A DNA stretch of 64,000 bases. Source: a virus. Where the stretch lies: the IMG/VR virus record IMGVR_UViG_3300030329_004481, one strand, 5' to 3'. Shown one piece after another: positions 42,352 to 44,448 of this stretch. Numbering within the stretch: position 1 is the first letter of the stretch; each line of letters begins with the position of its first letter. A model generated the notes under the pieces. It had not been told where the DNA came from. It saw only the letters and a program-made list of their open reading frames with translations, and did no database searches. The position numbers were made by a program, and so were the translations under genes.

Positions 42352-42365
42352 GTTTTTTGACCAAT

Positions 42366-42462
42366 TGGCTCCCGGGGAAGGATTCGAACCTTCACGTCCT
42401 CGTCCTGCAACAAAGACAGACCCTAAACAGTGGCCCGTGTCTACCAGTTTCACCACCCGAGA
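42366..42462 (-). tRNA. Atypical tRNA-Asn(GTT), 97 nt, long variable arm, encoded CCA
   Basis: Acceptor TCTCGGG/CCCGGGA, G73, CCA; D arm GTG-AAACTGGTAGA-CAC; anticodon loop CT-GTT-TA; 9-bp V stem; T arm GAAGG-TTCGAAT-CCTTC. Confidence 0.85.
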
Positions 42463-42513
42463 GTCAATTGGTCAATATCAAAAAAGCAACATAAACATTG
42501 AGAATAAGTAAAG

Positions 42514-42645
42514 CTACTTCAACCAAGTTTCTTCTTCCAGATGTTTAGACTCATGTTCTTTTAATTCTTCAACATCTGTAAAAATTTCATCACATTCAAA
42601 ACAACTATTAAAACCATGCTTTTCATAGAAGTCTTGTTGCGTCAT
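42514..42645 (-). CDS. 43-aa C2H2 zinc-finger microprotein
   Basis: MTQQDFYEKHGFNSCFECDEIFTDVEELKEHESKHLEEETWLK matches C-x2-C-x3-F-x5-L-x2-H-x3-H; ATGA overlap with upstream gene. Confidence 0.75.
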   Translation of the reverse strand: MTQQDFYEKHGFNSCFECDEIFTDVEELKEHESKHLEEETWLK

Positions 42646-43517
42646 ATTAGATTTGCTTTCTTCATTCCATCGATCATTCTTGTAACACCAATTCCGCCAC
42701 CAAACCTTGGTACAAAATCATGTTCCAAAAATTCATCTAATTCTTTTAATACTCTTTCTTCACCAAATAATTCATAAAGTAAATTTGCATAACCGCCGTC
42801 AGATATTGTATGAAATTGTTCTCTCATCATATCCACATCATCAGCTCTTTCTGCAGAACCAATTGTTTCTTGCCCACCAATAATTACATCACATTTTAAT
42901 GCGGCCATTCCACCAGTAGATAAAGGTGTAGGGTCTTTTTTCATATTCCAGAATGGTGAGGTTGTGTAAGGGAAGTGTGTGAGGAAAAATACGTCTCCGT
43001 ATTCATTATACATATCTGACTCATGTTTAGCGGTAAGTAAGTTGTCAGATGCTGTATACTTACCGCACATCGATAAATAATTACCACCAGGGAAGTGGTC
43101 CGTATATGGTGCCCTTCCATGATCGCACTTAAATCCTAAATGAACGAGTAACTCATCTTCCATCTTAATTAAATCATCAAATGTACCAGGCATTTCAAAT
43201 TCAAACATTGGAAATATAATTTCATGCCTACCAGGTATTGGATTTGGTTCTTGTCTATAACTAGTACTTACACAAAAACAACCAGGAATTTCTGGTCTTG
43301 TAAGCAATTCATATTCTAGCCACATCTGGCCAGTTTGAGGTAGTGGCCAAATTTCACCATTGTATTCGTATGTCGCAACTGTAGTTGGATCTTCACAAGC
43401 GGCAAGAATAGATAATCTATTTTGTGTGTGAACTTCTACAAAGTTTTTAGAAAGAAAAAATTCTCTGAGGCGGGATGTAACAGTAGTGAAATCGTTTGGA
43501 TCAATCAATGATGTCAT
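42642..43517 (-). CDS. Class IIb aminoacyl-tRNA synthetase catalytic domain (AsnRS-like) lacking the anticodon-binding domain
   Basis: Motif 1 LREFF..KNFVEVHT; QTGQMWLE; motif 2 SYRQE..RH..FPMFEFE; ETIGSAER; motif 3 GGGIGVTRM; only 291 aa. Confidence 0.88.
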   Translation of the reverse strand: MTSLIDPNDFTTVTSRLREFFLSKNFVEVHTQNRLSILAACEDPTTVATYEYNGEIWPLPQTGQMWLEYELLTRPEIPGCFCVSTSYRQEPNPIPGRHEIIFPMFEFEMPGTFDDLIKMEDELLVHLGFKCDHGRAPYTDHFPGGNYLSMCGKYTASDNLLTAKHESDMYNEYGDVFFLTHFPYTTSPFWNMKKDPTPLSTGGMAALKCDVIIGGQETIGSAERADDVDMMREQFHTISDGGYANLLYELFGEERVLKELDEFLEHDFVPRFGGGIGVTRMIDGMKKANLI

Positions 43518-43542
43518 AAAATTCCTTTCGAGATTTCTTTTT

Positions 43543-43550
43543 TATTTATA
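43543..43550 (-). promoter_or_regulatory. Late promoter consensus upstream of AsnRS-like gene
   Basis: Intergenic TATAAATA about 25 nt before ATG. Confidence 0.6.
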
Positions 43551-43555
43551 CGATT

Positions 43556-44212
43556 TCAATTCTCTGGATCATAAGATTTGCCTACATCTTTTCCAAATTC
43601 TGTAAAATAACTTAAATCAGTTTCTTTTGCTATTCTATTCTCAACTGAATATACTGTTTGATCTATTAAATAACCTGGATTCTTTTTAAGTCTATTAAAA
43701 GTAAATGCAACATCACTCCAAACAATTCTATTATTTGGATAACAGAAAAAATTACCATCATCCATTTTAAAAAAATGTCCACATTTATGTTCAGGGTCTT
43801 CAGAAAAATTAACATCTAAATTGCCCGCTTTGTTTTCAAAACCCCAATCTAGAGTGAACATATATTCACCCCAATGTTTTTTTCCACTATGGTCTACTAG
43901 TTCTGCTCTCTTTCTCGCAAGTCTTTCTCTCACATTAACATCAATGTATGGTGAAAAACAATCCCAATAATGATGCATATCTAGATCATAAACTGGTGCA
44001 TCTTTTTTCCAACAAAAAGCAGTTATAGGTCTTCTAGTCCAATTAACTCCATTTTCTAATAAACATTCAAATAGTGGAACTCTATGTTCAATACTTGCTA
44101 CTGAATGAATATCAACTACTGAATACTGTCCTTGTCCTTTACTATGATCATACAAATATTCATCCCTTATAAAACAATTTATACAAGGAATATTATGATT
44201 TAAGTATGACAC
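43556..44212 (-). CDS. Conserved hypothetical phage protein
   Basis: SYLNHNIP, WDCFS, YMFTLDW, EHKCGH, GNFFCYPNNRI; GTG start overlapping upstream TAG. Confidence 0.75.
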   Translation of the reverse strand: MSYLNHNIPCINCFIRDEYLYDHSKGQGQYSVVDIHSVASIEHRVPLFECLLENGVNWTRRPITAFCWKKDAPVYDLDMHHYWDCFSPYIDVNVRERLARKRAELVDHSGKKHWGEYMFTLDWGFENKAGNLDVNFSEDPEHKCGHFFKMDDGNFFCYPNNRIVWSDVAFTFNRLKKNPGYLIDQTVYSVENRIAKETDLSYFTEFGKDVGKSYDPEN

Positions 44213-44448
44213 TAAACTGAAGCATGTGCAATAGGTGACAAAGATGTTTCCCAACCGCCAATAACAATTGCTCCTGTATCTGGATGAGTTAATACTTTAT
44301 ATTCACCATCAACGTCCCATGTATCATCAACTAAGTTTGGTTTATCCACAAAGAGTGTAATAGTACCATCTTTATCTTGGGCATACCATTTCCACTTATC
44401 ATCAACCATAAATTCAAACCTAATACGTTTCTTCTCTGTATTCTCCAT
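44212..44448 (-). CDS. Hypothetical protein
   Basis: 78 aa, WYAQDKDG. Confidence 0.65.
   Translation of the reverse strand: MENTEKKRIRFEFMVDDKWKWYAQDKDGTITLFVDKPNLVDDTWDVDGEYKVLTHPDTGAIVIGGWETSLSPIAHASV

Follow-up and report, generated by a model that had tools for sequence, protein, structure and literature searches.

A stand-alone AsnRS-like catalytic core associated with pyrimidine synthesis in bacteria and with a captive tRNA in marine phages

Introduction

Aminoacyl-tRNA synthetase (aaRS) cores without an anticodon-binding domain are known to pass an activated amino acid to non-canonical acceptors: EpmA (GenX/PoxA) is a LysRS paralogue that lysylates elongation factor P (EF-P), and GluQRS (YadB) is a GluRS paralogue that modifies tRNA-Asp. 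tRNA can in turn serve as an amino-acid carrier, as in the transamidosome of non-discriminating AspRS (ND-AspRS) and GatCAB, in tetrapyrrole synthesis from Glu-tRNA and in cell-wall synthesis with a non-proteinogenic tRNA-Gly. The locus described here recalls both kinds of system and lies in a 64,000-nucleotide stretch of DNA (the window; IMG/VR record IMGVR_UViG_3300030329_004481) from an uncultured marine T4-like phage, where a stand-alone class IIb aaRS-like protein, called X here, is followed by an atypical tRNA-Asn(GUU), called the captive tRNA. The X family is tied to pyrimidine synthesis in bacteria, standing where the entry by carbamoyl-phosphate synthetase (CPSase) and aspartate carbamoyltransferase (ATCase) is missing; this is an association, and the reading that we tentatively prefer is that X may be an Asn-activating class IIb ligase with a metabolic, pyrimidine-linked role, equipped in phages with a non-ribosomal carrier tRNA. 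The genes themselves are already deposited and annotated, as 'tRNA ligase' only; Sullivan et al. (2010) list a 'T4-GC 194 tRNA ligase', and no functional study of X or of the captive tRNA was found in the literature.

Among described proteins, the catalytic domain of AsnRS (PDB 2XTI, 8H53, 1X54, 9SH8) is the closest to X, being the best match by profile and by structure and sharing motifs 2 and 3, the QxxLE signature and the glutamate of the motif-2 strand. X differs from it in having no oligonucleotide/oligosaccharide-binding fold (OB-fold), in the replacement of the motif-1 proline (EVHTQ) and in being encoded within pyrimidine operons and alongside a canonical AsnRS. Like the archaeal asparagine synthetase AS-AR (3P8T, 3REU, 1NNH) and AsnA, X is a stand-alone class IIb-like core of ~290 aa that has no anticodon domain and is tRNA-independent in some contexts, but it matches AS-AR weakly and partially, with a lower Z, does not match AsnA at all, and has an AsnRS-type pocket. 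EpmA and GluQRS share with X the synthetase core without an anticodon domain and, as proposed here for X, the delivery of the activated amino acid to an unusual acceptor; EpmA is a distant match with an apparently different amino-acid pocket, neither efp nor epmB was found in the neighbourhoods of X that were examined, and no link to EF-P or queuosine was seen. The carrier tRNA outside ordinary decoding that we propose would resemble the tRNA-dependent amino-acid and metabolite pathways named above (PMC2330236, PMC9976931), with U1-A72 and G73 as in GatCAB substrates; the captive tRNA differs in being a class II (Leu-like) molecule with a pyrimidine at position 37, and in being tied to a pyrimidine-linked synthetase-like enzyme. 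Finally, X occurs in operons and fusions with PyrD, PyrE and PyrF exactly where PyrB and CarB are missing and thus recalls the classical entry by CarAB, PyrB and PyrC, although it has no homology to transcarbamoylases, ATP-grasp CPSases or amidohydrolases.

Fold and Active Site of X

The window protein matches Pfam tRNA-synt_2 (D/K/N; PF00152) with E 2e-16 over residues 12-287, from profile position 27 of 308, and PHROG 29758, which has no function assigned in PHROG, with E 7e-103; its AlphaFold2 (AF2) model has a confidence (pLDDT) of 95. The NCBIfam asnS and aspS models give ~22-24 bits against cut-offs of >340 bits, and with 22.2 bits against the curated cut-off of 342.6 of asnS TIGR00457 the protein falls outside canonical AsnRS. 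An earlier note on this DNA, made from the sequence alone, had described an enzyme without an N-terminal OB-fold, and this description is borne out: PF01336 gives no match, the protein begins at the motif-1 helix and there is no room for such a domain. Nor does X appear to have a split anticodon-domain partner, because the genes upstream differ between loci.

AsnRS ranked first in the profile search and in both structural searches (profile E 1e-15, VIA Z 28.0, 22-24% identity), followed by archaeal AspRS (E 4e-14, Z 26.9), AS-AR (E 6e-7 for 3p8t, residues 51-152 only; Z 24.2), GenX/EpmA (E 1e-4, Z 23.8) and LysRS (Z about 23.5, no profile E given). No AsnA match was obtained with PF03590/TIGR00669, the only Pfam and NCBIfam families at E <= 0.1 being tRNA-synt_2, aspS and asnS, and no AsnA chain is among the PDB profile matches. 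Class II motifs 2 and 3 are intact, with R88, R224 and R280 nearly invariant, and the motif-2 loop is conserved; Q61, Q64, L67, E68 and E106 are also nearly invariant and align to Brugia AsnRS. In the profile alignments PLPQTGQMWLE of X stands against TQSSQLYLE of Brugia AsnRS, whereas archaeal AspRS has QSPQLY-KQ, so the view that QTGQMWLE is AsnRS-like rather than AspRS-like holds. The pocket is of the AsnRS type: a leucine occupies the position of the substrate-binding lysine of AspRS and is followed by glutamate (QxxLE), and the motif-2 strand has at E106 the glutamate of AsnRS instead of an aspartate. The corresponding AspRS residues, Lys198 and Asp233, are those which we take to discriminate between the amino acids. 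The most economical inference from fold and pocket residues is that X would bind Asn and ATP and form Asn-AMP. Catalytic motifs are near-identical in the phage, Candidate Phyla Radiation (CPR), Bacteroidota and fused forms of X, and one chemistry is accordingly expected everywhere. One clade (L021, L050 and L065), which has no downstream tRNA, carries ETIGSAQR in place of the conserved ETIGSAER (Gln for Glu).

The family is very abundant, with at least 8000 protein clusters at 90% identity, 687 representatives at 50% identity, at least 599 loci in IMG/VR and hundreds of ocean-phage loci. By tblastn, X is also found in three huge uncultured phages and in the cultured Prochlorococcus phages P-SSM2, P-SSM5 and P-SSM7 (54-58% identity), where it is the annotated 'tRNA ligase'.

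Association with Pyrimidine Synthesis in Bacteria

Two fusion proteins with 48-53% identity to the window protein join X to pyrimidine enzymes, PyrD-X in one (P0125) and X-PyrF in the other (P0129), and their contigs also encode PyrE plus PyrF or PyrD. In eight loci of Bacteroidota metagenome-assembled genomes (MAGs; Chitinophagales, Aureispira, Saprospiraceae) X has, upstream and on the other strand, a divergent gene for a PyrE-PyrF fusion, and in five of them PyrD sits between this gene and X, on the strand of X. Five X-bearing Chitinophagales genomes of 4.3-6.9 Mb (G490-G494) all encode a canonical full-length AsnRS; ATCase gave no match in any of them (controls positive in 14/14), and CarB is absent (best score 83 bits, cut-off 1027). 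The absence of ATCase and CPSase from these five genomes points to arginine auxotrophy or to carbamoyl groups of other origin. ATCase is also missing from three further X-bearing Chitinophagales (G517, G528 and G604). An even sample of 151 Chitinophagales genomes contained five with X, all among the 20 that are pyrB-negative, and X was present in none of the 131 pyrB-positive genomes (hypergeometric P about 2.5e-5, uncorrected for relatedness); the other 15 pyrB-negative genomes have no X.

Linkage between X and the Captive tRNA

A tRNA covariance model (R1) was built from 18 of the tRNAs, 20 of its 24 pairs showing compensatory changes. With it, 76 of 86 phage loci, whose neighbourhoods change from one to the next, proved to have a tRNA on the strand of X, 7-180 nt beyond its 3' end. 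P-SSM2, P-SSM5 and P-SSM7 have an 86-88-nt tRNA-Asn(GTT) directly after X despite differing surrounding genes, and neither ARAGORN nor R1 found any other tRNA in P-SSM2. In the opposite direction, IMG/VR was searched for Leu-like D arms followed by GTT where the anticodon should be, which yielded 120 stretches; seven lie too near a contig end to be assessed, and in all 113 assessable loci X lies <=400 nt upstream, so that no case of the chimeric tRNA without X was seen among them. Conversely, X occurs without the captive tRNA in huge phages, CPR bacteria and Bacteroidota. Since the tRNA was always found with X and X also exists without the tRNA, the dependence runs one way: the tRNA needs X. 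The linkage of the enzyme to an atypical long-arm tRNA(GUU), expected by the earlier note, is thus very strong when surveyed from both sides, and the lack of linkage that the note had named as a refutation was not seen.

R1 is not specific, ordinary tRNA-Leu scoring up to 78 bits, and its matches in CPR genomes and huge phages were rejected as chimeras, being tRNA-Leu. One huge phage that has X and no chimera (L186, LR756508.1, 481228-481410) carries both parental types of the chimera, an ordinary tRNA-Leu and an ordinary tRNA-Asn, 20 nt apart. In P-SSM2 (NC_006883.2) RefSeq places the tRNA-Asn PSSM2_199 at 164094-164179, within the coding sequence PSSM2_205, whereas ARAGORN and the covariance model both place it at 162083-162171, just after the 'tRNA ligase'; the RefSeq position looks like a coordinate error.

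Structure and Identity of the Captive tRNA

The window tRNA scores 33.3 bits with the Rfam tRNA model (gathering score 29), and is called Asn/GTT by ARAGORN; its variable region contains an insertion of ~22 nt, and the CCA is encoded. Across 47 unique captive tRNA sequences of 79-109 nt (CCA encoded in 45) U1, A72, G73, G34 and U35 are invariant, and position 36 is U in 44 and C in three; the canonical tRNA-Asn set of GUU, G73 and U1-A72 is therefore present, with U36 in 44/47. Asn identity resides in the anticodon and G73, bacterial GatCAB relies on U1-A72 and on the D loop, and ND-AspRS accepts U36 or C36 (PMC9976931, PMC2811023). The acceptor stem, UCYGGGG...G73, is that of ordinary bacterial tRNA-Asn, for example of Saccharibacteria, and is strongly conserved, while the anticodon stem covaries freely. 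The D arm and body are tRNA-Leu-like, and the covariance model gives cellular tRNA-Leu 60-78 bits, but the discriminator G73 (not A73) and the GUU anticodon set the molecule apart from tRNA-Leu. It does not conform either to the canonical class I tRNA-Asn body with U33 and purine-37: U33 is kept in 39 and purine-37 in 11 of the 47 unique sequences, whereas both are found in 70 of 70 ordinary tRNAs encoded at these phage loci, and positions 32, 33, 37 and 38 are variable. The frequent loss of U33 and purine-37 argues against ordinary decoding, and an invariant G34-U35-U36 in such a rule-breaking loop suggests a triplet read by a protein. X has no anticodon reader, which would point to a class IIb synthetase of the host as the triplet-reading protein.

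Across relatives the variable arm measures anything from about 5 nt to a covarying ~10-bp helix and has once been swapped for a D-loop hairpin, so that it is unlikely to be the specific handle. The swap is found in a close relative of the window cassette (L006:3940-4036), in which a hairpin of ~22 nt in the D loop replaces the variable arm and the anticodon loop reads UUGUUGG. The A31-G39 mismatch is unique to the window tRNA, its relatives having perfect 5-bp anticodon stems. ARAGORN calls of Asp(ATC), Ile, Glu, Asn(ATT) and '???' on the longest tRNAs were discarded as misfolds, the covariance alignment giving GTT; the GTC calls are real in L034, L041, L042 and L048. Three lineages carry GUC with an unchanged acceptor stem, L034 having an enzyme near-identical to that of L033, and no pocket change was found in the X of the GUC-tRNA lineages. 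Such variants beside the same enzyme would mean miscoding if X charged Asn for translation and would be harmless if the tRNA works off the ribosome.

A Proposed Metabolic Role

In the reading that we tentatively prefer, X would bind Asn and ATP in the AsnRS manner and make Asn-AMP, and its main role would be metabolic rather than translational, replacing in bacteria the entry by CPSase and ATCase. A chemically plausible but speculative reaction would be Asn + CO2 + ATP -> dihydroorotate, or alternatively an equivalent path to carbamoyl-aspartate: Asn-AMP might capture CO2 as an N-carboxyanhydride, and an attack of the side-chain amide on the carbamate carbonyl might then yield dihydroorotate while restoring the alpha-carboxylate. 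The conversion of aminoacyl-adenylates by CO2 into N-carboxyanhydrides is known to take only minutes at the CO2 levels of the ocean (PMC4262824), and CO2 capture on Asn-AMP followed by amide attack would explain how a ureide ring could arise from alpha-carboxyl activation in an AsnRS-type site. In phages, ND-AspRS or AsnRS, the class IIb synthetase of the host, could load the captive tRNA, which would fit G34-U35-(U/C)36 and G73, and GatCAB could amidate it, which would fit the invariant U1-A72. X might then act on the acceptor end, taking Asn from the tRNA or putting Asn onto it, and the captive tRNA would be a private carrier of activated Asn for the nucleotide supply of the phage. The most specific form of this proposal, in which X is a pyrimidine-ring synthase that replaces CPSase, ATCase and possibly dihydroorotase, and in ocean phages draws its Asn from captive tRNA loaded by ND-AspRS and GatCAB, seems to us rather unlikely as a whole.

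Several observations weigh against a metabolic role of X with a carrier tRNA. The phyletic test depends on 5-8 possibly related MAGs and is uncorrected for kinship, and no pyr genes adjoin X in the window or in the phage cassettes. The X family is very acidic (median pI 4.8), which makes tRNA binding no likelier but is compatible with it, and tight physical linkage alone could hold tRNA and X together. The GatB tail reads the tRNA D loop (PMC2811023), and GatCAB could be impeded by the enlarged, Leu-like D loop of the captive tRNA and by its long variable arm. In CPR bacteria, finally, X is sporadic (6/301 and 7/201 genomes, 2-3.5%), and three of five X-bearing genomes examined (G001 to G003, two of them complete-chromosome records) have neither PyrD nor PyrF; the pyrimidine role is thus not the whole story, and X as solely a de novo pyrimidine enzyme is rejected for these three genomes. 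All five genomes are without asnS and all have gatB. That X is the missing AsnRS of CPR was also rejected as a general rule in view of its sporadic occurrence and the presence of GatB, and the CPR data fit neither a metabolic nor a translational model well. The order dus-X-dnaX is conserved in 22 CPR loci of diverse Patescibacteria (L087-L158), and in one of them (L099) a PyrF-like open reading frame (ORF) stands between X and dnaX.

If the metabolic role is real, X would represent a new carbamoyl-phosphate-independent entry into pyrimidines used by bacteria, symbionts and viruses, and the captive tRNA a new case of tRNA as a metabolic carrier.

Alternative Explanations

The earlier note had proposed an orthogonal aminoacylation module, and in its translational form X would be an anticodon-blind AsnRS that identifies the captive tRNA by its conserved tRNA-Asn-type acceptor stem and by G73 and loads it with Asn for AAY codons, independently of ND-AspRS and GatCAB. 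This explanation is less likely but a serious rival, and it accounts simply for the phage data: the linkage is reciprocal (76/86 and 113/113), AsnRS is the nearest fold and lends the pocket its character, the acceptor stem, unlike the freely covarying anticodon stem, is strongly conserved, the motif-2 loop of the enzyme is conserved too, and most copies have GUU; the X-bearing CPR genomes, moreover, lack asnS, and their own tRNA-Asn shares the acceptor stem. It is at odds with the fusions and operons that join X to pyrimidine enzymes, and with the confinement of X in Chitinophagales to pyrB-less genomes that have a canonical AsnRS. In addition, U33 is lost in 17% and purine-37 in 77% of the unique tRNAs while all control tRNAs keep both, Asp codons would be misread as Asn by GUC variants whose enzyme is unchanged, CPR bacteria, in which GatCAB is present, contain X only sporadically, and X works without the tRNA in huge phages. 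The linkage and the AsnRS-like pocket on which the proposal was built stand, and an orthogonal pair that bypasses GatCAB is not established; among the three uses that the note had offered, the supply of Asn-tRNA for a non-ribosomal purpose fits best. Were the translational explanation true, the cassette would provide a naturally occurring, minimal pair of a tRNA and an anticodon-blind synthetase, of interest for genetic-code engineering and for phage takeover of translation.

It is unlikely that X and the tRNA are unrelated neighbours, X being purely metabolic and the tRNA a remoulded, tRNA-Leu-derived tRNA-Asn that is charged by the host and serves the Asn codons of an AT-rich phage. Host charging is possible, as the tRNA has the full known Asn identity set, X does without the tRNA in bacteria and huge phages, and the two genes are merely 7-180 nt apart; however, the tRNA occurred without X in none of the 113 assessable loci despite a widely changing neighbourhood, and its anticodon loop breaks rules that other phage tRNAs obey.

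That X supplies asparagine as an ammonia-dependent synthetase of the AS-AR/AsnA kind, with the tRNA raising tRNA-Asn capacity, is quite improbable. The stand-alone core has the size of AS-AR, with Z 24.2 to AS-AR structures and a profile match to 3p8t (E 6e-7), but X is nearer to true AsnRS in sequence (E 1e-15) and in structure (Z 28.0), the AS-AR match is limited to residues 51-152, an AsnA match is absent and, in the pocket, Leu and Glu take the place of the Lys and Asp of AspRS. Free Asn would also be of no use for translation in asnS-less CPR bacteria, and the complementarity with pyrB would be unexplained unless Asn itself were the pyrimidine precursor.

Least of all do we expect X to be a tRNA-modifying paralogue that, like the anticodon-domain-less GluQRS acting on a GUN tRNA, attaches its activated amino acid not to A76 but to a base or ribose within the captive tRNA: X does adjoin the tRNA-modifying gene dus in 22 CPR loci, but it is the acceptor end that is invariant, positions 32, 33, 37 and 38 being variable, and the pyrimidine-operon context would go unexplained.

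The Window Cassette and Its Surroundings

The three parts described in the earlier note, the 291-aa core, the coupled 43-aa ORF and the long-arm tRNA with anticodon GTT, are all present on the minus strand of the window (Table 1).

Table 1. Features of the X cassette in the window.
Feature	Coordinates	Strand	Basis
T4-late-promoter-like motif TATAAATA	43543..43550	-	Exact match, 25 nt 5' of the enzyme ATG
X, 291-aa class IIb aaRS-like catalytic core, AsnRS-like, stand-alone, without anticodon-binding domain	42642..43517	-	Pfam, PHROG, AF2
43-aa acidic C2H2 zinc-finger-like ORF, accessory	42514..42645	-	ATGA overlap with X, weak zf-C2H2 match
Captive tRNA, 97 nt, anticodon GUU, U37, long variable arm	42366..42462	-	ARAGORN, Rfam

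The ATG of the 43-aa ORF overlaps the TGA of X as ATGA (translationally coupled), and the tRNA starts 51 nt downstream of the ORF end. The zf-C2H2 match is weak (E 9e-4, under the gathering score). Apart from the window, the ORF is kept only in L016-L019, at the same position and with 65% identity, and is absent from the other ~40 lineages; it is an accessory, optional add-on of two lineages and not the core part of the module that it had been taken for. A late motif before the module had also been claimed, and the exact TATAAATA is indeed there, but the motif is not enriched, with 10 found in the window (nine of them on the coding strand) against 8.9 expected; as this count is at chance level, the late-promoter match is a lead only.

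Megablast of the locus against GenBank phages gave no close DNA relatives. Metatranscriptome contigs of relatives cover pieces of X and are uninformative on transcription, ends and tRNA processing; one of them spans the junction of X and the zinc-finger ORF. The neighbouring genes in the window include gp46-like, peptide deformylase and CobT-like genes. Upstream of X, a 232-aa ORF (43556-44254, minus strand) has no Pfam match and corresponds to PHROG 3704 'ferredoxin' (auxiliary metabolic genes; E 6e-46). In five other phage loci (L060, L064, L066, L078 and L079) tmRNA genes with tags ending in ...LAA lie 1-3 kb from X, and in three of these (L064, L066 and L079) tRNA-Ala and tRNA-Asp are found near the tmRNA and X.

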